64,000 bases of DNA from an uncultured Pseudanabaenaceae cyanobacterium (GTDB taxonomy: Bacteria; Cyanobacteriota; Cyanobacteriia; PCC-9006; JAAUQQ01), in assembly GCA_938021205.1 (NCBI GenBank), contig CALIGI010000058.1, positions 13,169-77,168 on the forward strand, written 5' to 3'. Below are positions 33,828-61,213 of this stretch, piece by piece; position 1 is the first letter of the stretch; every line of letters starts with the position of its first letter. The notes under the pieces are model-generated. The model was not told the origin of the DNA and searched no databases. It saw only the letters and a program-made list of their open reading frames with translations. The position numbers and the translations under genes were made by a program.

Positions 33828-35321
33828 ATGGAAACGCAGCCTCTTCACGCAAGGGAGTCGCTAGACCTTGAGCTCAGCCAATACTTCGATTTACTTCGTC
33901 GTAAATGGCTTGTGCTTGCCCTCATTTGGGGGGGGGCCTTCGGCCTTGCGGTAGGAGCAGCTTTACTCAAAGCTCCCAGCTACCAAGCATCCTCGAAGGT
34001 TTTAGTGAAGGTCGACCAAACCGCTTCCCTCACCGGAATTGGTAAAGGGGTGGGAGATATAAATTCCATCGCGAAGAACCCCCTCAGTACGGAAATTGAA
34101 ATTATCCTGGCTGCACCCACCCTAGATCGGGTGATTGGCACATTAGATCTGAAAAATGACGAAGGGGAGTCCCTCACAGCCAAAGATCTGCGAAAGAATC
34201 TTGATGTCAGCGTTGCAGGTGGTGCTGATGTGATTGAGATGAGTTATGAAGCTAAGGATGCTCAACTGGCCGCTAATATCGTGGATGAGCTCTCCCGCGT
34301 CTACATCGAAAGCAATATTCTTGAAAATCAGCTCCAGACCTCTAAGGCTAGGCTCCTCACAGAAAAGCAGCTACCCGAAAGCGAACGTTTTGTTCAGCAA
34401 TCAGAAGCTTCCTTGCGAGACTTTAAGGAAAGTAATGGCATTGTTTCCCTCCAGGATGAAGCAAAGTCCGTTGTGATTGCTTTACAGGATATAGATAGCC
34501 AGGTTCTACAGGTGAGATCTTCTCTGGATGAGGTGGTGAGCACGGCGACTCAGTTGCGCGAAACCTTGGGATTAAATCTATCCCAGGCGATGCTTGCTAG
34601 TGATCTCAGCCAGTCCCCAGCGATCCAAGGAGTGATGCTAGATCTTCAGGCCCTAGAGCGCCAGAAAGCGATTAAGTTGGGCACTTATACGGGCCAGAGC
34701 CCTGTTATTCAGGTTTCCAGTGCCGAGGAGGAATCCCTCAAGCAGCTACTGTGGGAGGAAATGATCACGGTGGTCGGCAATCGCACTGAAGTCCCCGAGC
34801 GCTATTTACAAATGGGGGCGATGCGCCAGGAGCTGATTGCTCAGTTTGCCCAAGCTGAGGTCCAACGTCTAGGACTGGAAAATCGACTGCAAACTTTGGC
34901 AGAATATCGCGATCGCTATGTGAGCCGTGCGAACAGTCTTCCCAGTCTGGAGCAGCAAGAAAAGGAGTTGGAGCGTACTCAAGAAGTTGCCCGTCAACGT
35001 TATCAAGAGAATCTGCGTCGTCTGCGGGATTTGCAAGTGGCGGAGGAACAGTCCATTGGTAATGCGACTTTGCTGGAGCCTGCTGCGTTGCCTGATGAGC
35101 CCAACCGAACCAGTCAGCAAATCATTGTGGGTTTTGGAGGATTAGCGGGGGCGCTTCTGGCGGCAGGGGCGGCAGCGCTGATGGCCTTTGATGAGAGTAA
35201 TCGCGATCGCCGTCATGCCCAAGGTGGCGTTGTCGTGCCGTCGCCTGGACCCTCAAGTCAAGTGATTCCCCGAGGTAATGTTGCTCCCCCTGAAGGTGCT
35301 AATCCTGAAGGTGCATTCTAA
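33828..35321 (+). CDS. Polysaccharide co-polymerase (Wzz/GumC-like chain-length determinant, with no kinase domain).
   Basis: RRKWLVLALIWGGAFGLAV N-terminal TM, a long coiled-coil periplasmic region, and a second TM IIVGFGGLAGALLAAGAAALMAF near the C-terminus. Confidence 0.75.
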   Translation: METQPLHARESLDLELSQYFDLLRRKWLVLALIWGGAFGLAVGAALLKAPSYQASSKVLVKVDQTASLTGIGKGVGDINSIAKNPLSTEIEIILAAPTLDRVIGTLDLKNDEGESLTAKDLRKNLDVSVAGGADVIEMSYEAKDAQLAANIVDELSRVYIESNILENQLQTSKARLLTEKQLPESERFVQQSEASLRDFKESNGIVSLQDEAKSVVIALQDIDSQVLQVRSSLDEVVSTATQLRETLGLNLSQAMLASDLSQSPAIQGVMLDLQALERQKAIKLGTYTGQSPVIQVSSAEEESLKQLLWEEMITVVGNRTEVPERYLQMGAMRQELIAQFAQAEVQRLGLENRLQTLAEYRDRYVSRANSLPSLEQQEKELERTQEVARQRYQENLRRLRDLQVAEEQSIGNATLLEPAALPDEPNRTSQQIIVGFGGLAGALLAAGAAALMAFDESNRDRRHAQGGVVVPSPGPSSQVIPRGNVAPPEGANPEGAF

Positions 35322-35535
35322 GCTCTGTATGGGTTGCTTGATGTCAGATGGTGGTGATTTCGAGGCTGTCTGTCGGAGTTCAAAAGCCCCAGTGCATTGC
35401 ACTGGGGCTTTGGTTGTGTCTCTCGCATTGTTCCCTGGGTTCGAGTCAAGCCCACCTGGACTTTAGGTGGGGGGCTTGGGTTTTGGGGTATTGCGGGAGT
35501 GGATAGATGCTCTCTAATGGTTGTTAGAGAGCGTC

Positions 35536-36750
35536 TCAATGGGAAGAGCGATCTCGCGCTAAAATATCCTGTAGCTGCTGCACCAGCAACGCCACTTGGG
35601 GTAAGCCAAATGCTTCATCAATCAACTGGTGTCGCTGTGCTTTTTCCGGGTCTGTGAGACTTTCAGAGAAGCAATCCAGCACTCGACTTGCGAAGGATGG
35701 GGCATCTGAAGCTAGGTAAAACAGAGATTTGACGGAGTCTGGCAGTCCATAGATGCCCTTGTCGAGGGATACGATGGGCTTATGGGTGGCCAGCATATCA
35801 ATGGATTTGATACTGACTCCTCCTCCCACCGCGATGGGATTGACTAAAACCTGACCAGAGTTGTAGATTTCTGCCGCAGACTCTGGGTTGATGTGGAGGG
35901 TAACACCGTCAATGCGATCGCAGAGTTCTCGAATGCTCTGGCGCGGCTTAGAGCCCGCAATCAGGACCGACAGATCTGGTTTCTGGGCTTGAATCAGGGG
36001 AACAACATCGGTCAAGAACCAGCGAATGCCTTCTACGTTGTTATCCGTGTACAGATTGCCGAGGAATACGAGATCAAAGGTCTCAGAATCAACCTTGGAT
36101 TGAGGTGCTTGACTGGCTAAATGGGCTAAGGGAGGGAGAAAATAGCCGTTTTCAAAGCCCTCCTCCTTCCAGAATGCTAAGTCATCCACGGAGATGTCAA
36201 AAAAAGCTAAGGCATTTTGCAAGGTTGAGAACTCTAGTGCCTTCAGATTTCTAACAGTCAAGAAAGCAGATAACTTCTGTTTGCCTGTGGCCGCTCTGAA
36301 TAGTGCATCTCGATGTTGATGCTCAATATTATGGGAGCGCACAATGTATGGAATATTGAGCTTCACTGAGAGCTGTTGGGCTAGGACCGCAGCATGGATA
36401 CCATCGATCAGTAGCAGGTCTGGCTGAAAGCACCGGACATCGTCACTGAGTTGGTCAAAGGCTTCCTGGGTGAGCCTGCGTGATGTAATACCTAGGGGAT
36501 TTTGCAATAAATCCACGCCACGGCGTAGGAAAGAAGAGAATGTTTTTCCTGTGAAATCTAGAAGTTGGAGATCGTTGACGGAATCCTGGAGCTTGACTAA
36601 ATCACTGGCCTTGGGCTCTTCCGCTTTCCAGCAGACTAATTGTGTTTCCACTCCCAGCATCTTGAAGGCTTCTATGCGTCTCCAAATATCTACCCTTCCT
36701 CCATGGATGGGAGGATAGGGGATTTCCATGGCGATGATCGTAAGCTTCAT
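35536..36750 (-). CDS. Glycosyltransferase family 1 (GT4-like).
   Basis: N-terminus MKLTIIAMEIPYPPIHGGRVDIWRRI. C-terminal GT-B half with VLVNPIAVGGGVSIKSIDMLA. Confidence 0.8.
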   Translation of the reverse strand: MKLTIIAMEIPYPPIHGGRVDIWRRIEAFKMLGVETQLVCWKAEEPKASDLVKLQDSVNDLQLLDFTGKTFSSFLRRGVDLLQNPLGITSRRLTQEAFDQLSDDVRCFQPDLLLIDGIHAAVLAQQLSVKLNIPYIVRSHNIEHQHRDALFRAATGKQKLSAFLTVRNLKALEFSTLQNALAFFDISVDDLAFWKEEGFENGYFLPPLAHLASQAPQSKVDSETFDLVFLGNLYTDNNVEGIRWFLTDVVPLIQAQKPDLSVLIAGSKPRQSIRELCDRIDGVTLHINPESAAEIYNSGQVLVNPIAVGGGVSIKSIDMLATHKPIVSLDKGIYGLPDSVKSLFYLASDAPSFASRVLDCFSESLTDPEKAQRHQLIDEAFGLPQVALLVQQLQDILARDRSSH

Positions 36751-37589
36751 AGCTGCCTAAAGCTGTTTTCCTTTGCAATAGATAAAAGATCAACCCGCGA
36801 TGGCTTATCGCTGTGATGAAGGTGGTGCTTTCAGAGTTGAGCTATGGAAGATGCAGCTAACGGGAGTAGGACATTATTCGATGAATGTGTCAGTCATCCT
36901 AGGCTTAGTATTCCCGTGGCAATGATGGAACAGCCAGCCTAGTTGATGCCATAGAGGGCGATCGCAGGCTAGGATTATTTGTTGGTAAGGCTACAAGTCT
37001 TTGGATGATTTTTTCGTTTTTCTGAGTGAATAATGTGATCTATTTTGATGGATTAACTAGGATTAGAACGCTAATTAAAATGGAGTATTATATAGGGGGC
37101 TGATCGTTTGTAAAATCTGTCTATGTTAGGCAATGATATCTGTACATATTAGGTTGTAGTCTAAAAAGTAGAATTAATAACTAGCGCATTTTTCTTGCTT
37201 TTCCAGATATTGAGTCGAGCTGAATAATTCCTTGATTCTGTCTTTTGAGAAGGAATAAACTAACTTTATATATCCATCTCTTGTAGGTTCTACTGAATTT
37301 TTGAAATCTTCTGTTAGCAAGTAATTCAAACTCCGCTAGATCCGATAAAAATCAAATAAAGTATCAGTAATTTACTGTACATCTAATTCTGGAAGCGAGT
37401 AGCTTAGGCATATGAGTTCAACATGAACATTTTAGGTGTAAGCCACGCCTATATACGAGAATCTAGCCGATTGACCCTAGCTCTTCTCGTGATGGATGCT
37501 TGATTACATCAATGAGCGAGCTATCAGACTTTGAGTCATTGAGAAGCGGTGTATTTACCAAGCCATTTCTTCTCCTTAGGCTTCACTCC

Positions 37590-38042
37590 ATGAGATTCTT
37601 ACTGGCCTGTACTTCCGGCGGCCACTTTTCCACAATGAAATCCCTTGAGGATTTTTGGTCTAGCCATGACCGGGTTTGGGTCACTGACTACAAGCAAGAT
37701 ACCCATGCACTTAAGGAGCGGGGAGAGGCAGTGGATTGGATGCCTTACCAAGCCCCTCGAGATTTGCTAACTCTCATTTTTAACTTGCCTAGGACGTTTG
37801 CATTGTTGCGTCAGCATAAGCCTGATGTGGTGATCTCTACGGGAGCCAGTATGGCTATTAATTTTGCGATTGCAGCTCGAATATTAGGGATTCGCTTTCT
37901 ATTTATTGAAAGCATTTCTCGCTCAGAAGAATTGAGTATTTCAGGCAAGCTGGTCTATCCCTTGGCAAGTGAATTTTATGTGCAGTGGCCTCAGCTTTGC
38001 AAGCGCTACCCTAAAGCTATTTTTCAAGGCACTGTGACCTAG
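37590..38042 (+). CDS. Alg14-like membrane-anchor subunit of a split UDP-sugar glycosyltransferase (PssD/Cps14F-like). The six-frame ORF begins at 37500; the start is assigned to MRFLL.
   Basis: MRFLLACTSGGHFSTM ... PDVVISTGASMAINFAIAARILGIRFLFIESISR matches the Alg14 family signature. Confidence 0.7.
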   Translation: MRFLLACTSGGHFSTMKSLEDFWSSHDRVWVTDYKQDTHALKERGEAVDWMPYQAPRDLLTLIFNLPRTFALLRQHKPDVVISTGASMAINFAIAARILGIRFLFIESISRSEELSISGKLVYPLASEFYVQWPQLCKRYPKAIFQGTVT

Positions 38043-38178
38043 GTCTAGGAATAATTAGGTGATGAATAAATGCCAATTTCTAATTATCTAATTCTCCTGT
38101 CGGCGATCGCTTAAAACAGCCTACCCCGGCCCTATCTTTTCTCCTGGCTGATTCACTAAAGACGTGCGAGATTGATGA

Positions 38179-38787
38179 ATGATCACAGTAACCTTAGGTA
38201 CAATTCCTTACCGCTTCAACCGTTCTATCGTTTGGCTCAAAGCTTTGTTGGATAGTGGTGTTATTGATGAACCTGTTTTCATTCAATACGGCACTAGTGA
38301 TATTTCTGCGCTGATCAATCATCCTCTCGTCACGGCTGAGGTCGCTGTTACCCAGGCCAAGCTCAAGGCTATGGTAGAGCGCTCTCGATTTGTCATCTCC
38401 CATGCTGGACAAGGCTCCACTCGCCTGATTGCTGCATCCCAGACCCGTTTTGTTCTTCTACCTCGTCTAGCTCTGTATGATGAGCATGTGGATGACCATC
38501 AGTTGATGTTTGCCCGTAGTGTTGCCAGTCGTGGGGTTCACCACTGCACTACATTTGAGGCTTTAGAGCAGGCCATTCTCAACCCTCCGGCATTATGCCC
38601 GCCCAGCTTATTTGAAGGTCCTAAGTTAACTGCATATTTGCTCAAGTGCTACCCGGAACGGTCTATCGTCAATAGTTCCGCCCCCTGGTACAGCCACCTA
38701 TTGCTGCGTCAAGCTAGGCGCTCTTATTTTGATTGCAGCATCGTGGTTCGTCATGACAAGTCTGGCATGGTCACCCACGATTTCTAG
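38179..38787 (+). CDS. Alg13-like catalytic subunit of the split glycosyltransferase (Glyco_tran_28_C; PssE/Cps14G-like).
   Basis: MITVTLGTIPYRFNR...VFIQYGTSD...FVISHAGQGSTRL...DHQLMFARSV matches the Alg13/MurG C-terminal-half pattern. Confidence 0.7.
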   Translation: MITVTLGTIPYRFNRSIVWLKALLDSGVIDEPVFIQYGTSDISALINHPLVTAEVAVTQAKLKAMVERSRFVISHAGQGSTRLIAASQTRFVLLPRLALYDEHVDDHQLMFARSVASRGVHHCTTFEALEQAILNPPALCPPSLFEGPKLTAYLLKCYPERSIVNSSAPWYSHLLLRQARRSYFDCSIVVRHDKSGMVTHDF

Positions 38788-38880
38788 CCATCGCAATCGT
38801 AGGTGTAATTCTGAAATACCGCCGGAGCATTGAGTCGCTCCTGGGTTATGAAATCAGAGGATTGACCATTTTATTGACTT

Positions 38881-40149
38881 TTGGGCTTGATCCACGCTTG
38901 GGTCTACCAACATGCTCCTTGGGTATCAGGACGAATAGTTTTGGTTACTTCATTTTCAACTAAGAAGAATAAAGCCCCTGTGATCGGAACGGTGTGCAGC
39001 AATGTCACGAACCTGGTTGTCCAAGCTGAACAGCAGCTAGATGGGCTCTATATTCCCACGACCCAGCCAGTTTCATTGCTCTCGAAAAATCCGTTTTTGA
39101 GCATTATCATCAATAACTATAATTATGCAGCTTTCCTCCGCCAAGCTATTGATAGTTGTCTCGCTCAGTGCTATGAGAACTTTGAGATCATTGTGGTGGA
39201 CGATGGCTCTGACGATGATTCCGCGCAGATTATTCGCAGCTATGGCGATTCCATCATCCCAGTGCTTAAGTCTAACGGGGGGCAAGCTTCTGCCATTAAT
39301 GCTGGCTTCGCGGTGAGTCAAGGTGAGATTATTGTTCTCCTGGATGCGGATGATTACCTGTTTGAACATGCACTTCGCACCATTGCAGCAGCTTGGTGCT
39401 CAGATAGCGCTGGGCCTGAAACGGTTCAAATTCAATGTCGTTTAACGCTCGTCGATCCTAAGGGTGAGGCCATCGATCTATATCCAGCACCGGAGATTAC
39501 TTTTGATCAAGGGGATGTGCGATCGCTCCTTCGCCAGCGTGGCCGTTACAGCACCACGGTCACCAGTGGAATTAGTTTTCATCGTCGTGTTCTGACGGAA
39601 ATTTTGCCCATTCCGGAATCAGATTTTCGTATTTCTGCCGATGGCTATTTGGTTACGGTGGCTCCTTTCTACGGCGCAGTGGGAGCCGTAGAGATTGCGG
39701 TAGGGGCTCGTCGCAAACATCAGAACAATTTCTGGGCACCCTTAGGCAATGCGGTGTGCTTATCCCATCTCCATCGTTCGATTCAGCATGACTTCCTCCG
39801 CTACCAGTATTTGAGTCAGATCATTGGAGAAGTAATCTCTCTAGAGCAGTTTGGTCTGGGTGATCACTTCCACTTAATGTCCCGCCTGCCCTCTAGTCGT
39901 CTATCTCCCCAACAGCACCCCTGTCCCGGGGATCAACCGGAGCAGCTTGCTCTGCGCGGTCTTGTATCGCTGTGGCATTTGCGCTCCTACAAGGCGCGGC
40001 GCAAGCTCATTCTCAGTGCTTGGTTCCTCTGGGTTGGCTTTGCGCCTAAGGCTTGGGTTCGTCCAGTGGTGGACTGGCTTCTCGTCAGTGGCTCTCGCCC
40101 CCAGCCCATTGACCGTTTGTCCAAGCTGCTACGACGCATCACGCGATAG
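38881..40149 (+). CDS. Glycosyltransferase family 2. The true start is probably downstream of the first ATG.
   Basis: LSIIINNYNYAAFLRQAIDSCLAQCYENFEIIVVDDGSDDDS...SNGGQASAINAGF...VLLDADD shows the GT-A DXD fold. Confidence 0.8.
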   Translation: MGLIHAWVYQHAPWVSGRIVLVTSFSTKKNKAPVIGTVCSNVTNLVVQAEQQLDGLYIPTTQPVSLLSKNPFLSIIINNYNYAAFLRQAIDSCLAQCYENFEIIVVDDGSDDDSAQIIRSYGDSIIPVLKSNGGQASAINAGFAVSQGEIIVLLDADDYLFEHALRTIAAAWCSDSAGPETVQIQCRLTLVDPKGEAIDLYPAPEITFDQGDVRSLLRQRGRYSTTVTSGISFHRRVLTEILPIPESDFRISADGYLVTVAPFYGAVGAVEIAVGARRKHQNNFWAPLGNAVCLSHLHRSIQHDFLRYQYLSQIIGEVISLEQFGLGDHFHLMSRLPSSRLSPQQHPCPGDQPEQLALRGLVSLWHLRSYKARRKLILSAWFLWVGFAPKAWVRPVVDWLLVSGSRPQPIDRLSKLLRRITR

Positions 40150-40241
40150 CAATGGCTTCACAAGGTGGAATCAGTTTGCCTTGGTGGGCTGTGCCCAGGT
40201 CTTTATCTATCTTTGCTGTGACGCTCCTTTAGCTCCTCTAT

Positions 40242-41336
40242 TTGCATTTCTCCGCCGCCATGGTTACCCAAGCAGCACCCAAACCTAAAATCCAACCGCC
40301 CCCCTCCCATCAGGCTGAAGATGCGGTCAATGCGCCCCAGCAGCTATTTCTCGCCTGGGTGCCATTTCAACGGCGGGCAGTGACGATGCAGTCCTACTTT
40401 GGCTATGAGTTGCACCATATCAGCCTTCGCTTTAAGCCAAAGTTTTTGCGCCCCTTCGAATATGTGATGAAAGCCTGGCAGAGTCTTTGGCTCATGCTGC
40501 ATCAACGGCCAGAGATTATCTGGGTGCAAATGCCTCCGGCTCCCCTACTGTATTTGGTCTTTGCCTACAAGTTGCTGGTTAATCCCCAGGTCAAGCTGGT
40601 TGCGGATTGCCATAATGCAACGTTCCGCGCTCCCTGGATTAAATTTCCTGCTGTTGTGGCCTTGCTCAACCGCTGTGATGCCGTCATCGTTCACAACCAG
40701 ATGGTGGCTTTGCAGGCCAAAGAGCTGGGGATTTCTCCGACCCATACCCAAGTTTTGCTGGATCGAGTTCAGCCTTTAAATTGTGGTGAGGGTTTGGCTG
40801 AATTGGCCCAGGGCTTGGGGCTAAAGACCCCCTGGTTTCTGATTCCCTGCTCCTTTAACGCTGATGAGCCCATTGCCGAAATTCTGGAGGCAGCCCGCCA
40901 GGCACCAGATCTGACCTTTGTTCTCACAGGCAATCCAGCCCGAGCCCAGGGTCGTCATGACTTGAGCAAGGCTACTACCAATGTCAAGTTTCCGGGCTTC
41001 CTTCCCGAGGGAGAGTTTAATACTTTGGTTTACAACGCGACGGCAGTGGTGGGTCTAACCAAGCTAGATGGCATTCAGCTGAGCGTTGCCAATGAGGCTT
41101 TGGGTTGCGATCGCCCCATGGTCCTGGCCCATACGAGCTTGCTCCAGCAACTGTTCCCTCGGGGGGCTGTTTATGTGGACCCCATGGATGCCAGGGATTT
41201 AGTGGCCGGTTGTCGACAGGCCCAAGCGGAAAGCGATCGCCTCACGACCGAAGTGATTTCGCTTAAGGCTGAGCGAGCTGCGCAATGGTTTCTCTCTGCT
41301 GCCCCCATTCGCCAGATCCTGTTTGACCAGTCTTAG
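40242..41336 (+). CDS. Glycosyltransferase family 1-like (GT-B).
   Basis: C-terminal half FPGFLPEGEFNTLVYNATAVVGLTKLDGIQLSVANEALGCDRPMV resembles the GT4 donor-binding region. The N-terminal half is divergent. Confidence 0.6.
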   Translation: MHFSAAMVTQAAPKPKIQPPPSHQAEDAVNAPQQLFLAWVPFQRRAVTMQSYFGYELHHISLRFKPKFLRPFEYVMKAWQSLWLMLHQRPEIIWVQMPPAPLLYLVFAYKLLVNPQVKLVADCHNATFRAPWIKFPAVVALLNRCDAVIVHNQMVALQAKELGISPTHTQVLLDRVQPLNCGEGLAELAQGLGLKTPWFLIPCSFNADEPIAEILEAARQAPDLTFVLTGNPARAQGRHDLSKATTNVKFPGFLPEGEFNTLVYNATAVVGLTKLDGIQLSVANEALGCDRPMVLAHTSLLQQLFPRGAVYVDPMDARDLVAGCRQAQAESDRLTTEVISLKAERAAQWFLSAAPIRQILFDQS

Positions 41337-41558
41337 CTGCTAGGTCTTGGGACTTGGATTGAATGTTTGGAGGACTGAAATGGGGAGCCTTTCCCCTTGC
41401 CAAAACTCAATCCCATTCCACCCATGACTGAGCCCAGTCTTCAAGGCTGGGTGTGAGCTTGCTGTGGGCTTTTTGAGACTAGGGCGGAGAGACTTTGCGC
41501 CTACCGAGACTTGTTTTTGAGAGGCATCTACCAAAATCCCTTCATTGCGATCTCCACT

Positions 41559-43271: not shown

Positions 43272-43390
43272 TCGGGCAACCTAGGGGCAACGGTCCCTGT
43301 TAGGTACGGTATTACATGGTATTACACAGTATTGCAACGACTGTTTGAGTCATTCATCGCATTGCCATCACACCCCTGTCTGGGTTTGCC

Positions 43391-50180: not shown

Positions 50181-50574
50181 AAAGGATCAACTTAAAGTAG
50201 AAATTTCTAAAATATTGGTTCCCAACTAAAAGAATTAGCCGTTAGATAAACCCACTATCCATTTGGATAGTCATAGAACTCCTTGACCACTCTTCAAATA
50301 TAAGGGGATTCCCCATCAGCTAGAGTAATAAAAGCAACTAGCCTCGAAGACCTCGCTTTGGTGAATGTCTTCAAACTAGTATTGCCTGGTGGAAATATCC
50401 AGACCATCTCTTCTCGTAAAGAGCATACCCAGCAAGGAGCCAGGAAAAGAATTGGTCGAAGAACTTACGCTGTCAGGTACTAGACCACATTAACCCTTTC
50501 GTCAGAGCAAAGGAAGGAGAATATTGGAGATAGGCTTTATTTGATACGGAAGCAAAGAAAAATCAAAAATTAGC

Positions 50575-50625
50575 AGTTCACATCTGTTCGCGATATTGGA
50601 TTATAAGCAGATGTGAACTGCAGTC
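50575..50625 (-). terminator. Long-loop hairpin terminator downstream of the AP-superfamily paralog.
   Basis: Perfect 13-bp inverted repeat cagttcacatctg ... cagatgtgaactg with a 24-nt loop, followed on the minus strand by a T-rich run. Confidence 0.45.
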
Positions 50626-50685
50626 ACAAAGTTAGCCTTAGACCGCTTCTAGCTATTCAGGCTTGACTGCGAGCTAATACCTCTG

Positions 50686-52344: not shown

Positions 52345-52748
52345 AGTAGCCCCAACGGTTAGTTCGACTAGCAATAATGTAACGGCATCATCTCTTCTCT
52401 AAATCGTCTCAGCTTCTACTAAGAACTCATTCTTGGAGATAAATCAACAAGCTTGATGGATCTACAAGGGGAAGCAGTACGATTCCCAGTGCTTTTAAGA
52501 CTATTCGGGATAAATTTTACACTAGTTGATGCTAGTACACTGATCTAACATCAACTCGTGAGCTGTGGGTTTAGCCTAAGTCTCTCGACTGAAGTAGATG
52601 CAATATGTATGCTTCCCTATTATCCATCCTACAAACAGAGATGCCCTCTCAGGCTTTGTAGGCTTTACAATCTCTTTGTAGAAGGGATGAAAGCTTAAAG
52701 AAGTCACCATTACGCTGCCTACATGACATTCTGAGACCTAGATCTCTT

Positions 52749-54206
52749 TCAAGATTTGGCAATATGCACCATCTCTGAAGCTTCTTGGGTATTTTGCCAA
52801 TCCCAACCTGCCACTGCAAATAGGACCCACCAGTAGAAAAACAACATTGTGTGGTCCCAAATATTCTCTGTTAACATTCCGAATAGCAAGGCCAGTAGCA
52901 TAACTATCATTACATAGCAGAGATTCTTTTGAGGAGTCGTGGAGTTGGGGGAGCGGAGCAGGCTGCTTAAGCGATAGAACTGAGCTATAAAAAACACCAT
53001 TATTCCGCTAAAGCCAACAATTCCCTGCTCGAAAATCCAACGGACATAATCATTGTGAGGCTCTAAATCATTGGAGCTTAGTGAAGCGCTAAGCCCTATG
53101 CCATGTCCAAACCACCGGGCCTGCTGCCATCGAGTTAGGTAGTCTGTCCATTGGGCAATACGCCAGTTGAAACTGTTGTAGTCACTCTTCGACAAAATAA
53201 TAGCTCTGGATGCATCGATGTCAGGATTGAGGAGCGGTGTCTGTGCAATTGAGGCCAAGCGTTCTTGTCCAAACTCAGAACTGCCAAACAGCGCCACAAC
53301 CACGCCAAACAATAGGAGCCCAAGGAAGAACTTAGAAAAAGAAATATTGCGCATCGCCATGCCAAGGATCAGGATTGCCAACATCCCTAAACTAAATAGC
53401 GCCTTCGTTGTGACGTAGAACAAACCCAGAACTGCGAGTATGCCAATCCAAACCCAGCGCTTGCCGCGACTCGCTAGAAGCTTCCAGTAGGTCAAACCGA
53501 TAAAAAAGAACAGGAATGTCGCAAAGCTATTCGGGTGACCAATCGTTCCTCGAATTCTAAGTCCAACGTCAGGTCCGGGCCCCCGTAAGGTGCTAACGAG
53601 AGGAGATATTTCAGTGGGAAGCGCAGTAGGGATAACCATCTGCAGCAAAGCCACAATCAAAGGGCATAGCAGTGAAAGCAGTAGAAGAGTAGCCAGTTTC
53701 TCAGGCCTTATAAGCCCTTTGAATTGCATGATCAGGATATAGACCAAAAACCAAGAGCCTAAACGTACGAACTCACGAATAGATTCTCCAGACAAAGCAC
53801 TACTCCCCCCCAGTCCCCCCAGCATGAGCAGAACAACCCAAACTCCTTGAAAGGCACACCAACCGGCAAAGAAGAAGAGGAATGGATCGGTATGGATTGT
53901 CTCCCGACGCAGCAGCTTGATAACCACATATCCGATCGCCAAGGCATCAAGCCCTACAGCAAAGAGAGCAGGCAACTGGATTGCAGAGAACGCGTCTATG
54001 GTGCTCCGCAAAATGAGAAGCGCCACAATGAAATAATCAAAACGACGGATACAAGCGATCGCGCCGACCACTCCTAAGGACAAAACCACGGCCCCAAATG
54101 GGTCAAGACCCGCCACAAGCCCAGTGACTAAGCCAATCAGACAGAACAGCACCGTCACAAGCCCAGCAATCGCGAAATTCTTAAACTTCAGTGTTTGTAA
54201 GGCCAT
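52749..54206 (-). CDS. Second O-antigen ligase / Wzy-like polymerase family membrane protein.
   Basis: About 12 TM helices and a C-terminal periplasmic loop with a HNDYVRWIFEQGIVG (Wzy_C-like) motif. Confidence 0.65.
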   Translation of the reverse strand: MALQTLKFKNFAIAGLVTVLFCLIGLVTGLVAGLDPFGAVVLSLGVVGAIACIRRFDYFIVALLILRSTIDAFSAIQLPALFAVGLDALAIGYVVIKLLRRETIHTDPFLFFFAGWCAFQGVWVVLLMLGGLGGSSALSGESIREFVRLGSWFLVYILIMQFKGLIRPEKLATLLLLSLLCPLIVALLQMVIPTALPTEISPLVSTLRGPGPDVGLRIRGTIGHPNSFATFLFFFIGLTYWKLLASRGKRWVWIGILAVLGLFYVTTKALFSLGMLAILILGMAMRNISFSKFFLGLLLFGVVVALFGSSEFGQERLASIAQTPLLNPDIDASRAIILSKSDYNSFNWRIAQWTDYLTRWQQARWFGHGIGLSASLSSNDLEPHNDYVRWIFEQGIVGFSGIMVFFIAQFYRLSSLLRSPNSTTPQKNLCYVMIVMLLALLFGMLTENIWDHTMLFFYWWVLFAVAGWDWQNTQEASEMVHIAKS

Positions 54207-54318
54207 AGGGCAGTGGCATTCTCCAGATTCAGGTTCATTTCACAGTTTTTACCGCAATCATTTATCAGCCGAATGAGCTGATTCCCGCATCAAAGAACTC
54301 TAAGAAACTTCCTTTGAA

Positions 54319-55149
54319 TCACTTCTCACCGACAACAATAGCTCCCAAAAGGAATCTTCCAGGCAAACTCCGTCCTACAAGCTTACGCAATTTCAAGGGA
54401 GCAGCATCTAAAAACTTTTCAATCGTTTCTACAACAAAGACAGGAAATCTCAAATAAATACCCTTACCACCAACATAAGTTTGGACTCGTGAAAACCCAG
54501 CTGTGAGAAAAGCAGCTCTTAAGTCAGTATAGGTATACTCTTTAAGATGAAAGCCAGTCGCAACTGGATCAAAGTACTGGGAGACATCATGGGGTCCTGA
54601 AAGACGGTTTGGAGTAATGCAAACGTACTTTCCGCCCATTTTGAGAATACGTTGAATTTCCTGTAACTGAGTGTCTGCATCTTCTGGATGGAGATGCTCC
54701 ATCAATTGGTTGCTATAAACCAAGTCCACATTCTCGTCACCTAGAGGAATTGAACAACCATCAAATAGAACGAGTTCAAAATTCTCTGGTAGGTCATTGC
54801 GCTGGGTAATTTCACTGGAGACGTCCAAAGCTTTTACAGCTTTAACCTTAGAGCAAGCTTCAATGGAAAAGTTACAATCTCCAGGTCCAATTTCAGCAAA
54901 AGAAGTCTCTGGCTTTAAGAACCGAGAAACTAGTCGCATTTTACGATCCACTTCTCGCTTCGAATCGTTTAGATCCTTCTTGCGCGTAATCTGAGGGTGG
55001 AATGGAATCTCCTGAAACATTTGATCATACAGAGAACTATAAAGTGTCTTTCGCTCTTCACGGTTCGAATTTTTTAGCTTAGATGCCAGACGCTTTTCTA
55101 ACTCATAGTGAGTTTGAATTTGCTCGAAAGTTTGATAAGGCGCTTTCAT
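54319..55149 (-). CDS. Class I SAM-dependent methyltransferase.
   Basis: Motif I-like AEIGPGDCNF and motif post-I/II VDLVYSNQLMEHL. Confidence 0.8.
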   Translation of the reverse strand: MKAPYQTFEQIQTHYELEKRLASKLKNSNREERKTLYSSLYDQMFQEIPFHPQITRKKDLNDSKREVDRKMRLVSRFLKPETSFAEIGPGDCNFSIEACSKVKAVKALDVSSEITQRNDLPENFELVLFDGCSIPLGDENVDLVYSNQLMEHLHPEDADTQLQEIQRILKMGGKYVCITPNRLSGPHDVSQYFDPVATGFHLKEYTYTDLRAAFLTAGFSRVQTYVGGKGIYLRFPVFVVETIEKFLDAAPLKLRKLVGRSLPGRFLLGAIVVGEK

Positions 55150-55234
55150 AGGATTCCTTTGTTAAGAAAATTAAGTGAGATTAAATATGGTCAAACTGAA
55201 ATGAACAAAGCCGTTCTTCATTCAAAGTTTTTGT

Positions 55235-55931
55235 TTATGCACCTCCTCCCACTAAAAAGAGAGTCTTCTTACTCCTCTGAAGGATGAGGTAATAGAGCAA
55301 AAATGAGCTTGTCGTTCCAATAAAAGTTGAAAATATACCTGGTAGAGCCAGAGTGAGGAAAAGCATTTTCATCAGCAGTGTAAAAGCGCGTGTAAAGTAG
55401 CCATGAAAAATATAGATAGTCAGGCTCTGCTTGCCAATATATGAAATCACTTTGCGAAAGCCAATTGCTTTGGCATCATCACCAGAATTTCCCCTGCTAA
55501 GTAACTTAACACAAGCTATTATACCCATCAACTATCAGAAAAATGTAGGTAAACCGAATACCAATCGAGAAATCTCAAAGCCTAGTATTTGGGGGGGGCA
55601 ACGAGCAACAACAGGCAAAAGCTAGTGCCAAAGGAGAAGACAGTGCGAGTAATATGAAAGGTTTCTTATCCCATAGTCTAAAACGATCTTCTTCTAACTG
55701 GTGCCAAATTAAAGGGAAGAAATGCCCCAAGATTAATCCAACTGCATAAAATAAATTCCAATAGCCATTGCGCAAAATCTGGTTGTTGGTATTCATACCA
55801 ATCACAAAGAATGCAATGGATATGGTGCCATACAGAATCAAAGAACTTTGATCGCGAAAATACAAAAATGTAAACAGAGTGATCAAAATGAGAGCATGGA
55901 GAAACCCAAAAATCTGATAAGGCGAGGTCAT
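55235..55931 (-). pseudogene. Decayed acyltransferase-3 (OafA-like O-acyltransferase) remnant split into two frame-disrupted fragments.
   Basis: Two adjacent short ORFs (55575..55931 and 55235..55531) both encode hydrophobic acyltransferase-3-like segments (FGFLHALILITLF...; SLTIYIFHGYFTRAF) inside an AT-rich, ORF-poor stretch. Confidence 0.45.
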
Positions 55932-56504
55932 TGAATTGAGTAGGTCAAGCCAGGAAAGCCCATTGCCTTTATAGAAATTCTGAAAAAAAAGAAGTAGAGT
56001 AGGGCGCAGACTATTAGTGGAACAAGAAGATGAGATAATTTCTTCGAAAAAAAAGATTACGGTAACTTCTTTTTCGATTACTGAAAGCGGAAAAGATAAG
56101 ATCTAAAATCGCAAAGAAAACAGGCATATGGATTGAATTAGCTCGATCCGAAATCTAGCCTAAGAGCGGAAGATCTGATCGAGCTCTCGCATTCCATGAT
56201 CTGAAGTAAAGCCAATCATGTGGCTAATTGCGATCAATATAATAATGGCGACACCAAAAAATCAATACAGCTCGGTCGGAAGTCGTTATCTAAATCGTTG
56301 TTTTGAGGTCTCACCACCCATCATTATCCTATTCTTTTCAATATGCTTTTATACATGGCGAATATTTGTTTTAAGCAACAATTGGAAAGATTGAATAGGG
56401 CTAAGATCTAGTCAATTGAGTGACTCCCTGGTGTCGCAGAAGCTTAAATATTAGTCTGCTGATACGCAAGTCAAAATTTTTCATGCCAGCGCGATGTCTC
56501 TTAC

Positions 56505-58718
56505 TTAATCAGGCAGTAGCTCTAATTCTTTTTCAACTCCCCTCGGAGTATTGTTCATATTTTTGAAACTCTCATAACGAGGCAAGGATTGAGATTCATT
56601 GACTACAACACCTAGTACGGGCGTATTGTTGCTTTCAATCTCTGCCATGGACTTGAACATTGCTTCTCGTACCGTCAAATTAGGACGCACAACGAAGACT
56701 AAACCATCGGCATACTGACTTAACGTCAAAGCATCTGCAGATGTGGTGACAGGAGCTGCATCTACAAAAACAAAGTCATAGCCCTTGGAAGCCTCGCGGA
56801 TCGCTATTTCCATTGCAGCAGATTCAGTCACTGTGGAGGGGCGGCTAATAAACTCACCATTCGAGAGAACATCCAAGTTCTCAAATCCACTGGGCTGAAT
56901 TGCTTCCCGTAGGGAGGCCTGGCCTGATACAACATGGGTTAGTCCCACTGTTGAAGGAAGAGCAAATACTTCTTGTTGTTCGGGACGGCTCAAGTTTGCG
57001 TCGATAATCAAGGTTTTGCGGGACAGCATTGCAGAAACAGAAGCTAGGCGTGCAATGACGTCGGATTTACCTTCGTTTTCCACGGTGCTGCTCATGACAA
57101 TTACTCTAGGCTTGTCTTTAATGCGAAGCTCTAGGGTTTTGAGTAGACTGCGGTAGGGCTCCACTACGCCGGGACTATCTAGGAAACGCTCTAGCTTGCT
57201 GGTGCGTGATGCAGAGAGTAGTAACTGACCAGACGGTTTTGGCAAGACTGCTAAAACAGGCACTTCGCTAGAGGCTTCAATTTCATTCGCATTGCGCAGA
57301 GTGCCGTTGAAGGCTTCGAGTAGCAGCACAATTCCAGTCGCTAATACGCCGCCAGCCGCTGTGGCGATCGCTAAGATTACCGGAACTTGAGGTGCTGCAG
57401 CTACGGTAGGTACATAGGCCCAGGAGACAATGCGAATATTACTCAATAGCTGAGCTTCTGCAATGCGGGCTTCTTGTAGCTTGCCCTGAAGTAAGGCCAG
57501 ATTCGACTTGACTTCATCTCGTTTTCGTTCAAGCGTTGACAGGTCCTGTTTTCGTTGTGGTACAGTCGCCAACTGGTCTTGCAAAAAAGATTGGTTCTGT
57601 TTAAGCAAGTTGAGATGATTATTTAGCGCTGCCGTTTCAACTGTGGTTAGCACATAGCGGGAGATCAAGTCTTGGCTGAGGTTGTCCTGGGCAACTGAGC
57701 CAGCGGATAGAGACTGAGAATCTGGTATGAGCTGTCCCAGGCGTTGACTATAGAGGCTCCTTAAATCACCCTGCTGCTGGGCCAGGGCTAAAACCTGGGG
57801 GTGATTATCTTGATATGTTGCCCGTGCCTCAATAATTTGAGATCCCAGGTTGATCAGCTTGGTCTTTAAATCTGCCAGCTCTTGATCTTGACCAATACGA
57901 GAAGCAACATAGGCTCGTTCAGGAGAATCAAACCCAGTCATTTCCCGAAGCATCCCTGTGCGGGTCTGAGCCTCTTGGAGTTGACCTGCAACCACTCGTT
58001 GCTGTTCTTGCAACTGAGAAAGGTTTGTCAACAGGGTATTGGTTTGTGCGTTTACATCCACTACTCCATTGGCTTGGCGATATTGAGTTTCAATCGTCTC
58101 AGCTTGGGTCAGCTTCTCTGCTTCCTGGGGAACTTGGCTCTCTAGAAACTGGCGAATAGAAGACGCTTCTAGACGGATATTCTCACTGCTTTGATTGATC
58201 ACTTCAGCAGCAATTCGATTAAGGAGTTGAGCTGTTAAATCAGGATCTAACCCCTCATAGCCGATCTGTAAAATATTGGTGGCAGGAATAACCTTGACTT
58301 GTAGCGATCGCTGGACTTGTCCAACTGTCGGCAAGGGAACTCCCTGCGCTTCGAAAGCCGGAGCTTCTTGTTGGAGCGCTCTCTCTAATACACGCTGAGA
58401 CTTCACTAACTCTGCTTGGGTTGCCATAGGATCTGCGCTACCCGCTCTGCCAGGAGGCCGAGTTAAGCCCTGGCCAAGAGTGGATACACTACTTGCTTGG
58501 GGATCTTCGACTGAGACTCGAACGGCAGAAAAATAAGACTTTTCTGCCACAGATATATAAAAACCAGCTCCAATAATGGCAGCTGAGAAGGTCAAGAGCG
58601 CTGGCAGCCAGTTGCGCTTGATCGGAGGCAAAATCGAAGAGAGCTTATCCATAGTTGCTTTTCTAATATCGCCAAGACTGGAGGTAGACTGGCTGGCCGG
58701 AGGCCTATCGCCACGCAC
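56505..58718 (-). CDS. Wzc-like polysaccharide co-polymerase with a C-terminal BY-kinase-type P-loop ATPase domain. The start is probably the internal MDKLSS at 58652.
   Basis: Two TMs flanking a coiled-coil periplasmic domain. Walker A SSTVENEGKSD, Walker A' TLIIDANLSRP and Walker B DFVFVDAAPV. No C-terminal tyrosine cluster is visible. Confidence 0.8.
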   Translation of the reverse strand: MRGDRPPASQSTSSLGDIRKATMDKLSSILPPIKRNWLPALLTFSAAIIGAGFYISVAEKSYFSAVRVSVEDPQASSVSTLGQGLTRPPGRAGSADPMATQAELVKSQRVLERALQQEAPAFEAQGVPLPTVGQVQRSLQVKVIPATNILQIGYEGLDPDLTAQLLNRIAAEVINQSSENIRLEASSIRQFLESQVPQEAEKLTQAETIETQYRQANGVVDVNAQTNTLLTNLSQLQEQQRVVAGQLQEAQTRTGMLREMTGFDSPERAYVASRIGQDQELADLKTKLINLGSQIIEARATYQDNHPQVLALAQQQGDLRSLYSQRLGQLIPDSQSLSAGSVAQDNLSQDLISRYVLTTVETAALNNHLNLLKQNQSFLQDQLATVPQRKQDLSTLERKRDEVKSNLALLQGKLQEARIAEAQLLSNIRIVSWAYVPTVAAAPQVPVILAIATAAGGVLATGIVLLLEAFNGTLRNANEIEASSEVPVLAVLPKPSGQLLLSASRTSKLERFLDSPGVVEPYRSLLKTLELRIKDKPRVIVMSSTVENEGKSDVIARLASVSAMLSRKTLIIDANLSRPEQQEVFALPSTVGLTHVVSGQASLREAIQPSGFENLDVLSNGEFISRPSTVTESAAMEIAIREASKGYDFVFVDAAPVTTSADALTLSQYADGLVFVVRPNLTVREAMFKSMAEIESNNTPVLGVVVNESQSLPRYESFKNMNNTPRGVEKELELLPD

Positions 58719-58729
58719 TCACTGGGGGA

Positions 58730-59965
58730 TTATCCCTGAGAAACGGACATCTTACTTTTCTTCGTAATTATTCCCTGGGGAGGAGACACAGTAACAGGTA
58801 TTGCCTCGGAAGCGCTACCTAAAAGCGTAAAGTGCAAGTGATTTGCATCTCTTACAACCCTCTCCCAGTTGTAATTTTGGCGAACGTAGCTTTGGGCGAT
58901 GTTGGACATGACCTTCATTTCTTCAGGATGTTCCATTGCCCAAGTCAATTTATCAACGCAATCATCCAAGTCTAACGACCGGAACATTACGCCTCGATCA
59001 TTTCCTAAAAGCTGATGATGAGGCGGTATGTCGCTCGCTACGATCGGCAGGCCTTCTTGCATCGCTTCCAACATCGCTAAAGGCAGTCCCTCAACTTCAG
59101 AAGGCAAGACAAAAATGCCTGCTCCTCGAACAACTTCTGCAAGATAGCGTCCCCGAAGCACACCGGTAAAGATGACTCTAGGGTCGCCTTTCACGAGACC
59201 TGAGAGCCTCTCTTGAAAAGCTGACGTGTCACTATTGCCGCCAACGATCGCCAGTTTCCAGCCGCGCTGCTTCAGTTTGAGGAAAGCCTCAATTAACAGG
59301 TCAGGACATTTTTCAGGAACAAGACGACCTAAAAATACTAAATACTTACCGGCTTCTAGGCCGAGGCGTTTGCCAAAGCTAAAATCCTGATCTGACGGGG
59401 CATATTGGGCTGGTCCATTGGGAATATAGACTGTCTCGCGACCATGGGTCTCCCAGAAATAACGACGCAGTTCTTGGGATACCACCACCATCTCATTGGA
59501 ATATCGAACCGCCAGTTTCTCGCCAAGGTGAATGAGGAAGCTCGAAAACTTGCCCCACTTCACCCGTTGCCAATCCAGTCCGTGACAATAAACTACGACT
59601 TTAGAGGACGAAAGCAGAAAAGGTAGCCAGCAAAATAAAGCAGGGCCTAACGCATGGATGTGAATAACATCGTAGCGTCGCAGGAATGTCGCGATGAATG
59701 TGCCAATCCCAGAACTGAGAATTGCATCAGCTCCTTTTATCTTTGGCACAGCAGGGATAGAGAACACCCGAACCCCAGAAAAATCACAGGGCTCTGACCA
59801 GGGCATACCTGTGTAAGAGGTACGCCCATAGATATCAACCTCATGCCCAGCTGCGGCCATGCGGGGATAAACTTGAGCACAATAATGCTCGATACCACCC
59901 TGGCCTGGCGGCAAGCCCTTCGCACCGATTACGGCTATCCTCACGTTAGACACCTCATCACTCAA
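58730..59965 (-). CDS. Glycosyltransferase family 1 (GT4).
   Basis: RIAVIGAKGLPPGQGGIEHY N-terminal GT4 donor pocket. C-terminal FVLPSEVEGLPLAMLEAMQEGLPIVASD (E-x7-E motif). Confidence 0.8.
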   Translation of the reverse strand: MSDEVSNVRIAVIGAKGLPPGQGGIEHYCAQVYPRMAAAGHEVDIYGRTSYTGMPWSEPCDFSGVRVFSIPAVPKIKGADAILSSGIGTFIATFLRRYDVIHIHALGPALFCWLPFLLSSSKVVVYCHGLDWQRVKWGKFSSFLIHLGEKLAVRYSNEMVVVSQELRRYFWETHGRETVYIPNGPAQYAPSDQDFSFGKRLGLEAGKYLVFLGRLVPEKCPDLLIEAFLKLKQRGWKLAIVGGNSDTSAFQERLSGLVKGDPRVIFTGVLRGRYLAEVVRGAGIFVLPSEVEGLPLAMLEAMQEGLPIVASDIPPHHQLLGNDRGVMFRSLDLDDCVDKLTWAMEHPEEMKVMSNIAQSYVRQNYNWERVVRDANHLHFTLLGSASEAIPVTVSPPQGIITKKSKMSVSQG

Positions 59966-59977
59966 TAAATATCCGTA

Positions 59978-61213
59978 TCAGGCGACAGCAGGCTCAGTCT
60001 TGGCTTTCCAGCGACTGAACATTTGGCCATACAGTTCACTGATGACTTGCCTTGCTTCGTAAGGCTGAGCATCTTGAGTGCAGGCTGAAACCGGATATTG
60101 CTCCGGATTGGCAAGAACCCTTTCCATGGCTGTTGCAACTGCCTCAGGAGAGCGTTCATCGCAGACTAAACCACTCTTTTCAGAGAGCAATTTAGGGGTT
60201 TCCCCGCAACGGGTTGTGACCACGGGAGTTCCACAGGCCAGGGCCTCTAGAACAACCAAGGGTAATCCTTCATAACGACTGCTTAAGACGCAAACAGAGG
60301 CGCACTGATGCAGACGAATGAGCTCTGACTGTTGTACGGGACCTAGCAAAGAGACTGAAGTTGTAATACCAAGGTGGCTTAATTCATCCCGCAATGGTTC
60401 CATCAATTCCCCATCTCCTGCGACCAATAGATGGGGGCTAAGCTCGGTATTTTGCTGCTTCAACTGGGCAAATGCTTGGGCTAGCAACAGAGGATCCTTC
60501 TGGGGATGTAGACGACCTGCGAACAGAATAAACTTGGTGTCTGGCTCCAATCCCAATTCTTTGGCCAAATTAGCTTGCTCAGTTGCCAGACTATCGTCTG
60601 TTAGCGGGTGAAACAGCTCGCCGTCAACAGTATTGCGAACTAAAGAAACGCGATCTGCCATATCTGCATAGTTCGCCTTGTAGAAATCTCGTGAATCAGA
60701 GTTACAAGAGAGAATCTGAGAAAACCGCTTCAGCAATCTACGCTCCAGCGCCAAATAGAGTTTTGGAACACGACTCCAAAGCATCCCACCTTGTTTGGCG
60801 GAGCCACCCTCCTTCAACATCTGACTGTGGATATCATTATGAACAAACAAGGTTTGTTCTCCGGGCCATCTAGAAGTCGCCAAACTTGGCTCTAAACGAT
60901 GGAAATGCATGAAATCGGAGGAAAGGTGCTTACCTAGCAGAGACCAGGTATACCTCAGTGTTGTGGGAATGAGTTTGCGTCGATTGTCATCTTCCATGAA
61001 GAAGAGAGGCATAAACATCACATCGCGCCCCTTCAAGGACAAACTATGCCAGCGCCTTAACTTTAAGCTAGGGTCACTTGTGATGCCGACGAATCGTATA
61101 CGGAAGCTATCCGGTGCATATTTTATAAAAGAACTAATGATCGTTTGAATGCCACCGATAGTTGCATTCCAAGGATCGTATTGATAGAAAATCGTTAGAA
61201 CAGGCTTTCGCAT
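59978..61213 (-). CDS. Glycosyltransferase family 1 (GT4).
   Basis: C-terminal VCVLSSRYEGLPLVVLEALACGTPVVTT (E-x7-E) and a GT-B N-terminal half. Confidence 0.8.
   Translation of the reverse strand: MRKPVLTIFYQYDPWNATIGGIQTIISSFIKYAPDSFRIRFVGITSDPSLKLRRWHSLSLKGRDVMFMPLFFMEDDNRRKLIPTTLRYTWSLLGKHLSSDFMHFHRLEPSLATSRWPGEQTLFVHNDIHSQMLKEGGSAKQGGMLWSRVPKLYLALERRLLKRFSQILSCNSDSRDFYKANYADMADRVSLVRNTVDGELFHPLTDDSLATEQANLAKELGLEPDTKFILFAGRLHPQKDPLLLAQAFAQLKQQNTELSPHLLVAGDGELMEPLRDELSHLGITTSVSLLGPVQQSELIRLHQCASVCVLSSRYEGLPLVVLEALACGTPVVTTRCGETPKLLSEKSGLVCDERSPEAVATAMERVLANPEQYPVSACTQDAQPYEARQVISELYGQMFSRWKAKTEPAVA

Follow-up and report, generated by a model that had tools for sequence, protein, structure and literature searches.

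A predicted two-module Wzx/Wzy-dependent glycan locus in an uncultured Pseudanabaenaceae cyanobacterium and its relatives

A 64,000-nucleotide stretch of DNA from an uncultured Pseudanabaenaceae cyanobacterium (GenBank assembly GCA_938021205.1, contig CALIGI010000058.1, positions 13,169 to 77,168 of the forward strand; hereafter the window, numbered from its first letter) carries a glycan locus of the Wzx/Wzy type at positions 33828-61213. In an initial annotation, made from the sequence alone, this 27-kb region was described as a horizontally assembled, strain-variable polysaccharide island. Here, we computed its gene content, synteny, composition and variation between relatives. The list of open reading frames (ORFs), together with Pfam and NCBIfam searches, revealed an unbroken run of 18 intact glycan-related ORFs, and a tblastn search added one pseudogene (Table 1). 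The set comprises a Wzz-like and a Wzc-like co-polymerase, four glycosyltransferases (GTs) of the GT4/GT1 type, three of the GT2 type, a PssD/PssE pair, two Wzx proteins, two Wzy_C proteins, a methyltransferase and two proteins of the AlkP/NPP fold. The glycan genes listed in the initial annotation (GTs, Alg14/13 pair, flippases, Wzy-like proteins, methyltransferase and polysaccharide co-polymerases [PCPs]) were all recovered in the family searches, and the acyltransferase remnant proved to be a frameshifted Acyl_transf_3 pseudogene, to which the intact 356-amino-acid (aa) orthologue of a related locus (L082) aligned at 56315-55587 (frame -3) and 55600-55247 (frame -1) with 44-46% identity. 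Missing from that inventory were two full-length paralogous AlkP/NPP-fold genes, one beside each Wzy gene. The genes had also been said to sit on alternating strands; they form two convergent blocks, from which only GT1a and Wzx2 deviate.

The two blocks, module A (33828-45993) and module B (46103-61213), meet at 45994-46102. Module B lies mostly on the minus strand and runs, from its start, through GT1d, GT1c and Wzc into a core that ends with GT2b; in this genome the core holds the acyltransferase pseudogene, the methyltransferase, Wzy2, AlkP-B, GT2c, Wzx2 and GT2b. Both Wzx proteins are flippases of the MOP family, the Wzz-like and Wzc-like proteins represent the PCPs, and the two polytopic Wzy_C proteins are the Wzy candidates. 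We consider it very likely that the region is a chromosomal locus common to all related genomes recovered, made up of two convergent Wzx/Wzy-dependent modules.

Relatives were found by searches for Wzc and Wzz homologues and by their genomic context. Five related metagenome genomes were obtained, with about 75-87% DNA identity to the window. All five carry the parts of the locus that their contigs cover, and any visible flank is the same, with MraY-TetR on the left and CpeS on the right. In the 123-kb contig of ERZ6863740, the series EamA-S49-chorismate mutase-desaturase-PAP-MraY-TetR is followed by the whole locus (22.3 kb) and then by CpeS-BlaI; aa identities are 74-100% for the flank proteins, 78-94% for module A and 89-91% for the Wzc-GT4-GT4 anchor of module B. 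ERZ6864208 covers the right flank and module B, showing the right-half gene order of the window, an intact acyltransferase and core proteins that are 70-90% identical. ERZ6864144 and ERR4592245, seen as internal parts only, have a Wzy2 homologue directly after Wzc (58% aa identity in ERZ6864144) and neither acyltransferase nor methyltransferase, and JGI 3300003871 contains the left flank and module A. The gene order of module A is conserved in all relatives where it is visible. When species-representative genomes were scanned with MraY, the best matches were 61-64% identical and shared only the PAP-fibrillin/MraY linkage; with nothing closer, the lineage is poorly sampled. Metagenome contigs scanned with Wzx1 yielded no match above 47% identity apart from one short fragment (61%), and the JGI contig was not among the matches.

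Conserved synteny, which the initial annotation had itself named as pointing away from an island, was thus largely what we found, as the whole locus of ERZ6863740 stands between both flanks. What speaks for an island is the composition of the right half, the AT-richness of the listed gaps and the varying gene content of the core. The GC content at third codon positions (GC3) is 0.561 ± 0.033 in the 28 flank genes. The genes of module A do not differ significantly from them (0.536, p = 0.07), whereas genes at 46103-55149 (0.457, p = 1e-5) and the Wzc-GT4-GT4 genes (0.459, p = 2e-4) are lower, and the acyltransferase-methyltransferase pair is lowest in GC (GC3 0.35-0.43). HIP1 sites (GCGATCGC) are by far the commonest octamer of the window, with 50 copies, and mark the source genome as a HIP1-type cyanobacterial genome; their density is 0.85 per kb in the flanks and 0.99 per kb at 33828-45993, and it is halved, to 0.46 per kb, at 45994-61213 (P = 0.057). 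The comparison of synonymous-codon choice, proposed earlier as a check, placed every gene of the region inside the flank range (|z| < 2). These data indicated a compositional signal that is real but modest and confined to the right 15 kb, so the claim of a GC content below that of the flanks holds for 46.1-61.2 kb but is not significant for the left 12 kb. Since the low GC3 of the anchor and core is equally present in the relatives, it is old and does not reflect recent acquisition by this strain.

The six gaps that had been taken for AT-rich joints are indeed AT-rich, with a GC content of 0.38-0.44, whereas 25 spacers from the flanks average 0.47 (p = 2e-4, Mann-Whitney test), but most of them are ordinary spacers of no unusual length, and one, 55150-56504, is no junction but the pseudogene. 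Pooling of all spacers of the region gave a GC content no different from that of the flank spacers (p = 0.08). Mean spacer length is 388 bp in the region and 463 bp in the flanks, and coding density is 0.82 versus 0.69 when ORFs of 100 aa or more are counted, together with a few small features added in the flanks. In the relatives, spacers of similar size lie at matching positions, so these are not recombination scars; the GT1a/PssD spacer, for example, has counterparts of 748 and 710 bp (GC 0.43) in two of them. Promoter-like hexamers occur on both strands of this spacer, no commoner than by chance. At the locus we found no integrase, transposase or insertion sequence (IS) element, and neither a tRNA nor flanking direct repeats bound it; the sole tRNA lies 4.7 kb outside. 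With a site shared by relatives, no signature of mobility and two separate modules, it is highly improbable that the whole 27 kb is a single strain-specific island assembled by horizontal transfer.

Variation is concentrated in module B. Its GT4-GT4-Wzc anchor is conserved, but the core that comes next occurs in four gene arrangements across six genomes (the window and its relatives). Between Wzc and Wzx1, ERZ6863740 has only an AlkP gene (66% identical), a GT2 gene (57%) and another GT2 gene, and neither Wzx2, Wzy2, methyltransferase and acyltransferase nor remnants of them were found there; its core genes are 49-66% identical to those of the window, which suggests that the core has been replaced. 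At the DNA level, the right flank is 86% identical to that of ERZ6864208 and the anchor 80%; identity falls to 70-76% over most of the core but is 83% for GT2b at the core edge. No gene of the locus is more divergent than Wzy2, which is 73% identical in L082, 58% in L129 and 40% in the distant locus L089. The methyltransferase is an accessory gene: ERZ6864208 has it, but ERZ6863740, ERZ6864144 and ERR4592245 do not. With the lowest GC, presence in only two of the six genomes and decay in the window, the acyltransferase-methyltransferase pair is the strongest candidate for a cassette added by horizontal transfer. Variability between these genomes is hence a property of the module B core and not of the 27 kb as a whole, and presence or absence of genes affects no more than a small part, about 5 kb.

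The relationship of the two modules was then weighed from their homologues within and outside these relatives. The counterparts in the two gene sets are only 22% (Wzy1/Wzy2), 26% (Wzx1/Wzx2) and 21% (Wzz/Wzc) identical, so the sets did not arise by a recent duplication. Module B stands alone between other flanks, nucleotide-sugar genes and ilvC, in a distant 6.1-Mb genome (L089), with identities of 64% for GT1d, 70% for GT1c, 58% for Wzc, 40% for Wzy2, 51% for GT2b and 62% for Wzx2 and with further transferases inside. Strings resembling module A are likewise found alone: a Leptolyngbyaceae metagenome-assembled genome (L090) has Wza-Wzz (44%)-AlkP-A-like (45%)-GT2-sulfotransferase-Wzx, and AlkP, Wzy and Wzx occur together in L093 and L100, the latter also with a co-polymerase. 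Wzy1 homologues adjoin Wzx1 homologues in most metagenome loci examined. Judged by these homologies, modules A and B are evolutionarily separate. As there are two unrelated Wzx/Wzy pairs and two co-polymerases, the most likely products of this strain are two distinct repeat units or polymers.

An alternative is that both modules belong to one integrated pathway for a single complex heteropolymer, the second Wzx/Wzy set being redundant or serving a side-branch variant. Such a pathway would fit the single kinase-type co-polymerase of the locus, one Wzc, and the fact that neither module has a primer or Wza of its own; cyanobacterial exopolysaccharide (EPS) repeats can be large, with eight GTs taking part in synechan synthesis (PMC8205485). 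It is countered by the presence of module B with its own Wzy and Wzx in L089, by the strings resembling module A that stand alone in L090, L093 and L100, and by the two co-polymerases and unrelated Wzx/Wzy pairs themselves. We regard a single integrated pathway as possible but unlikely. Wzx2 and Wzy2 are ancestral to module B, so that ERZ6863740 has most likely lost both.

Several observations nevertheless weigh against the reading of two Wzx/Wzy-dependent modules, each with its own product. Only five relatives were found, all of them metagenome assemblies, and the JGI contig was seen for the left half only. In ERZ6863740, the module B transferases, AlkP-B and Wzc are retained with Wzx1 and Wzy1 as the only flippase and polymerase. 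Module B is thus able to last without a Wzx and Wzy of its own, a point in favor of the single integrated pathway. The Pfam family Wzy_C (PF04932) also takes in WaaL-type ligases and cannot tell them from polymerases. Moreover, no priming transferase of the WbaP/Bac_transf or WecA type was detected among the window's ORFs of 100 aa or more, and neither Wza/Poly_export nor Wzb was detected there by Pfam and NCBIfam, so that the pathway is incomplete as seen. The primer may be encoded elsewhere in the genome.

The Wzc-like protein adds to these points. Its residues 349-686 match E. coli Wzc structures (E = 6e-28), and its P-loop, STVENEGKS, aligns with that of E. coli Wzc and retains the Walker A lysine. 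The window protein and its six closest homologues (84-92% identical) have ENEGKS, with Asn replacing the Gly of the GEGKS motif found in 108 of 120 homologues. The Walker A' motif reads DANLSRP (DxN) instead of the DADLRRP of most homologues, a clade-specific change that departs from DxDxR. In place of a tyrosine cluster, the last 40 residues contain one Tyr; four of the closest homologues also have one and the other two have 2-3, compared with typically 3-5 in distant homologues, and 34 of the 120 homologues have none or one. These motifs suggest that control by a phosphorylation cycle may not apply to this Wzc clade, whose members may be kinase-dead scaffolds. Not all Wzc homologues have the Y-rich region, which is absent from GumC and from Cyanothece homologues (PMC6562117). 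The window protein resembles these PCP-2a proteins, Xanthomonas GumC and the Cyanothece Wzc homologues, in its lack of a C-terminal tyrosine cluster; unlike GumC, which has no kinase domain, it possesses a full P-loop domain with the Walker A lysine kept.

With respect to the product, EPS or capsule is more likely than O-antigen, given the PCP-2a Wzc, the EPS-type best matches of the Wzz-like protein and the PEP-CTERM gene by the locus in two relatives. PEP-CTERM proteins are a class linked to EPS systems. Under the O-antigen alternative, one or both modules would make the O-antigen of lipopolysaccharide, with a Wzy_C protein in the role of polymerase or of a ligase of the WaaL type, while the Wzz-like protein would regulate O-chain length. 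The trio of Wzz, Wzy_C and Wzx does form the classical O-antigen set, and a variable core between conserved genes is typical of O-antigen loci. However, the Wzz-like protein, at about 500 aa, scores best in NCBIfam against the EPS-type chain-length determinants TIGR03007 and EpsF, and the Wzc of module B is of a type typical of capsule and EPS export; together with the PEP-CTERM gene, this makes an O-antigen quite unlikely.

On the reading of two Wzx/Wzy-dependent modules, a primer (phosphoglycosyl transferase) encoded elsewhere would load the first sugar-phosphate onto undecaprenyl phosphate, and PssD/PssE, if Rhizobium PssDE and pneumococcal Cps14FG are a guide, would probably add the second sugar. 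Cytoplasmic GT2 and GT4 enzymes would finish the repeat unit, which Wzx would flip and Wzy would polymerize, while the co-polymerase would set the chain length and deliver the polymer to a channel of the Wza type, likewise encoded elsewhere. Decoration of the chain would fall to the methyltransferase, and we infer a module B product that is O-methylated and whose O-acylation has been lost in this strain.

The two AlkP/NPP-fold proteins are 38% identical over their full length (E = 1e-131). AlkP-A has no Pfam or NCBIfam match of its own and no hydrophobic segment. For AlkP-B, an AlphaFold2 model (pLDDT 91) was compared with PDB structures by Foldseek, and the best folds were those of phosphonoacetate hydrolase and NPPs (probability 1.0, target-normalized TM-score 0.6-0.66), consistent with an AlkP/NPP core fold in the model. 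A sequence search of the PDB with AlkP-B gave no match, and in a profile search the best hit (E = 5.6e-4) covered a C-terminal motif only. With regard to a bimetal site and a Thr/Ser nucleophile, D11, E51, H207, H211, H265 and H492 are invariant across the family and T52 is nearly so; the Asp of the "DHG" motif, aligned to iPGM "ADHG," is Ala or Ser. Members are about 50% identical across many cyanobacterial orders, carry generic names only in the public records seen, and are part of glycan gene clusters in Leptolyngbyaceae, Chroococcidiopsis, Desertifilum and several metagenome loci. In Chroococcidiopsis (L130, CP083761.1), an AlkP-B homologue heads an AlkP-GT4 string, with GT2, methyltransferase and another GT4 further on. 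The Desertifilum locus (L131, CM124774.1) contains AlkP, a hexapeptide acyltransferase, GT4, Wza, two unannotated genes, GT2 and Wzx. Both AlkP genes have IS or transposase genes within about 2-7 kb, and a Wza gene is part of the glycan strings in L090 and L131. We tentatively propose, at somewhat less than even odds, that this soluble protein of about 555 aa is an unrecognized, functionally required part of cyanobacterial Wzx/Wzy pathways. It might act on lipid-linked or nucleotide-activated intermediates, as a phosphodiesterase, pyrophosphatase or phosphotransferase.

The flanks consist of cyanobacterial housekeeping genes. On the left are genes for S41 protease, RadC, LCP, ManC-like protein, aquaporin, plastocyanin, NDH-2, purB, EamA, S49, chorismate mutase, desaturase, PAP-fibrillin, MraY and TetR, and on the right are those for CpeS-like protein, BlaI and BlaR-like protein; PAP-fibrillin, the CpeS-like protein and plastocyanin were assigned by Pfam and NCBIfam. 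These flanks and the gene families within the locus bear out its identification as a Wzx/Wzy-type glycan locus of a cyanobacterium. The TetR gene adjoins the Wzz-like gene in all three genomes with the left end visible. Its product is 100% identical to the orthologues of two relatives, although the DNA around it is about 79-80% identical and the adjoining MraY 93-94% identical, which points to very strong purifying selection; TetR is a possible local regulator of the glycan locus.

A non-coding block of about 150 nt in the TetR-Wzz spacer is approximately 90% conserved in three genomes, above the adjoining coding DNA. A small ORF was ruled out by the absence of periodicity in its substitutions (13/11/10 over the three codon positions), and neither an Rfam match nor covariation among the three genomes was found; the block could be a promoter or operator region. 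The same spacer contains a window-specific insertion of about 280 bp, missing in both relatives compared, which starts near a GC-rich inverted repeat (GGGGGAGCGCGATGGCGGGATTCTCCCGCCCC) and has no second copy within the window. Between the convergent MraY and TetR genes lies a perfect 21+21-nt palindrome that looks like a bidirectional terminator, and similar hairpins lie between other convergent gene pairs. A promoter/terminator scan of 32000-38000 gave no more matches than expected from shuffled sequence. About 26 kb upstream of the locus, the LCP and ManC-like proteins could serve it in glycan attachment or precursor supply. On the right, two relatives (L082 5769-6719; L084 5694-6560) encode a protein of 288-316 aa between CpeS and the first GT4, whose tail resembles a PEP-CTERM sorting signal (...VPEPDALLALFGLVGLLGTR...). 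No such gene or remnant was found at 61214-62024 of the window or in a near-identical Logan contig (L001).

Table 1. Features of the glycan locus and its surroundings in the window
Feature	Position	Strand	Evidence and remarks
LCP protein	4888-6258	-	LytR_cpsA_psr
ManC-like protein	6795-7877	+	GDP-mannose pyrophosphorylase
tRNA-Leu	29022-29106
MraY (true)	30925-32046		TIGR00445, 335 bits; sole PF00953 protein of the window
Palindrome	32093-32134		21+21 nt, between MraY and TetR
TetR-family regulator	32199-32807	-	Pfam TetR_N, 66 bits; points away from Wzz-like gene
Conserved non-coding block	~33040-33190		TetR-Wzz spacer
Window-specific insertion	~33440-33720		TetR-Wzz spacer
Wzz/GumC-like co-polymerase without kinase domain	33828-35321	+	Pfam Wzz and GNVR just under cut-off; TIGR03007, 122.6 bits (cut-off 278); two hydrophobic segments, one per end; orthologues 76-82% identical
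Hairpin	35383-35411		between convergent genes
GT1a, GT4/GT1-type GT	35536-36750	-	Glyco_trans_1_4, 56 bits; 78-84% identical in relatives
GT1a/PssD spacer	36751-37499		AT-rich, GC 0.38; flanking genes transcribed in opposite directions
PssD/Cps14F/Alg14-like split-GT subunit	37500-38042	+	NF041549 PssD, 145.6 bits (cut-off 110); Alg14, 63 bits; true start probably ~30 codons downstream of 37500 (relatives call a 150-aa product)
PssE/Cps14G/Alg13-like catalytic subunit	38179-38787	+	Glyco_tran_28_C, 32 bits (cut-off 22)
GT2a, GT2	38881-40149	+	Glycos_transf_2, 97 bits
GT1b, GT-B-like GT	40242-41336	+	Glyco_transf_4 and Glyco_trans_1_2, 24-25 bits, under cut-offs (weak family support); 74-87% identical in relatives
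AlkP-A, predicted soluble, 586 aa	41511-43271	+	paralogy to AlkP-B; JGI orthologue has PF01663
Wzy1, polytopic membrane protein	43391-44710	+	Wzy_C, 48 bits (cut-off 31.7); multiple hydrophobic segments; polymerase, possibly ligase
Wzx1, MOP-family flippase	44707-45993	+	Polysacc_synt, 59 bits; start overlaps Wzy1 end by 4 nt
GT2b, GT2, last module B gene	46103-47113	-	Glycos_transf_2, 115 bits; 52% identical to GT2c; convergent with Wzx1
Wzx2, MOP-family flippase	47618-48886	+	Polysacc_synt_3, 174 bits
Hairpin	49077-49128		between convergent genes
GT2c, GT2	49191-50180	-	Glycos_transf_2, 110 bits
AlkP-B (NPP fold)	50686-52374	-	PF01663, 54.8 bits; true start probably at 52344, giving 552 aa
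Wzy2, polytopic membrane protein	52749-54206	-	Wzy_C, 40 bits (cut-off 31.7)
S-adenosylmethionine-dependent methyltransferase	54319-55149	-	Methyltransf_11, 47 bits; lowest GC gene of the window, GC3 0.35
Acyl_transf_3 pseudogene	55247-56315	-	frameshift near 55590, internal stops
Wzc-like PCP-2a with C-terminal P-loop (BY-kinase-type) domain	56505-58718	-	TIGR01007, 114.9 bits (cut-off 108); true start probably at 58652 (homologues 714-717 aa)
GT1c, GT4, conserved anchor	58730-59965	-	Glycos_transf_1, 90 bits; 91% identical in close relatives
GT1d, GT4, first module B gene	59978-61213	-	Glycos_transf_1, 118 bits; 89-91% identical in close relatives

Comparison with known systems places the locus among Wzx/Wzy-dependent systems, and it may be likened to Xanthomonas gum in this respect. 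The xss cluster of Synechocystis sp. PCC 6803, responsible for synechan, is likewise a Wzx/Wzy EPS cluster with many GTs and a co-polymerase and has its OPX gene elsewhere (PMC8205485). However, xss is plasmid-borne and has a primer (XssP), sulfotransferases and dedicated regulators, whereas the locus described here is chromosomal, is devoid of a primer or sulfotransferase, and has two Wzx/Wzy sets and two AlkP-like genes. It shares the assembly logic of the E. coli group 1 capsule and colanic acid (GTs, Wzx, Wzy and PCP-2a) and differs from them in having no adjacent wza/wzb, in its Walker A' (DANLSR versus DxDxR) and P-loop (ENEGKS), and in its one tail Tyr in place of a cluster. As in R. 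leguminosarum PssD/PssE and S. pneumoniae Cps14F/Cps14G, the two genes of the split GT are adjacent; only PssD of the pair clears its family model, PssE scoring 49.8 bits against a cut-off of 120 (NF041548). Conserved ends, a variable middle of lower GC and Wzy as the most divergent gene are also features of enterobacterial and pneumococcal capsule and O-antigen loci. In contrast to those serotype loci, the variable core here reflects between-genome variation of about 5 kb among six genomes at about 75-87% DNA identity. EPS genes of cyanobacteria are scattered or grouped in small clusters (PMC4594306), and Phormidesmis priestleyi has two Wzy-type clusters in one genome (PMC4971617).

Taken together, the locus belongs to a known kind and is an unremarkable, though well-resolved, representative of it; only the AlkP family and the atypical Wzc offer leads that go further. 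To our knowledge, EPS pathways of cyanobacteria are poorly characterized. Current models are unchanged by these results; what is gained is a set of candidates and a comparative framework. In this compact locus, two near-complete Wzx/Wzy modules lie side by side, which eases the design of experiments, and the natural variants among the relatives (acyltransferase intact or decayed, methyltransferase present or absent, second Wzx/Wzy present or absent, GT2/AlkP cassette replaced) could be matched to polymer chemistry. The AlkP-fold family represents a recurrent uncharacterized enzyme linked to glycan clusters across cyanobacterial orders.

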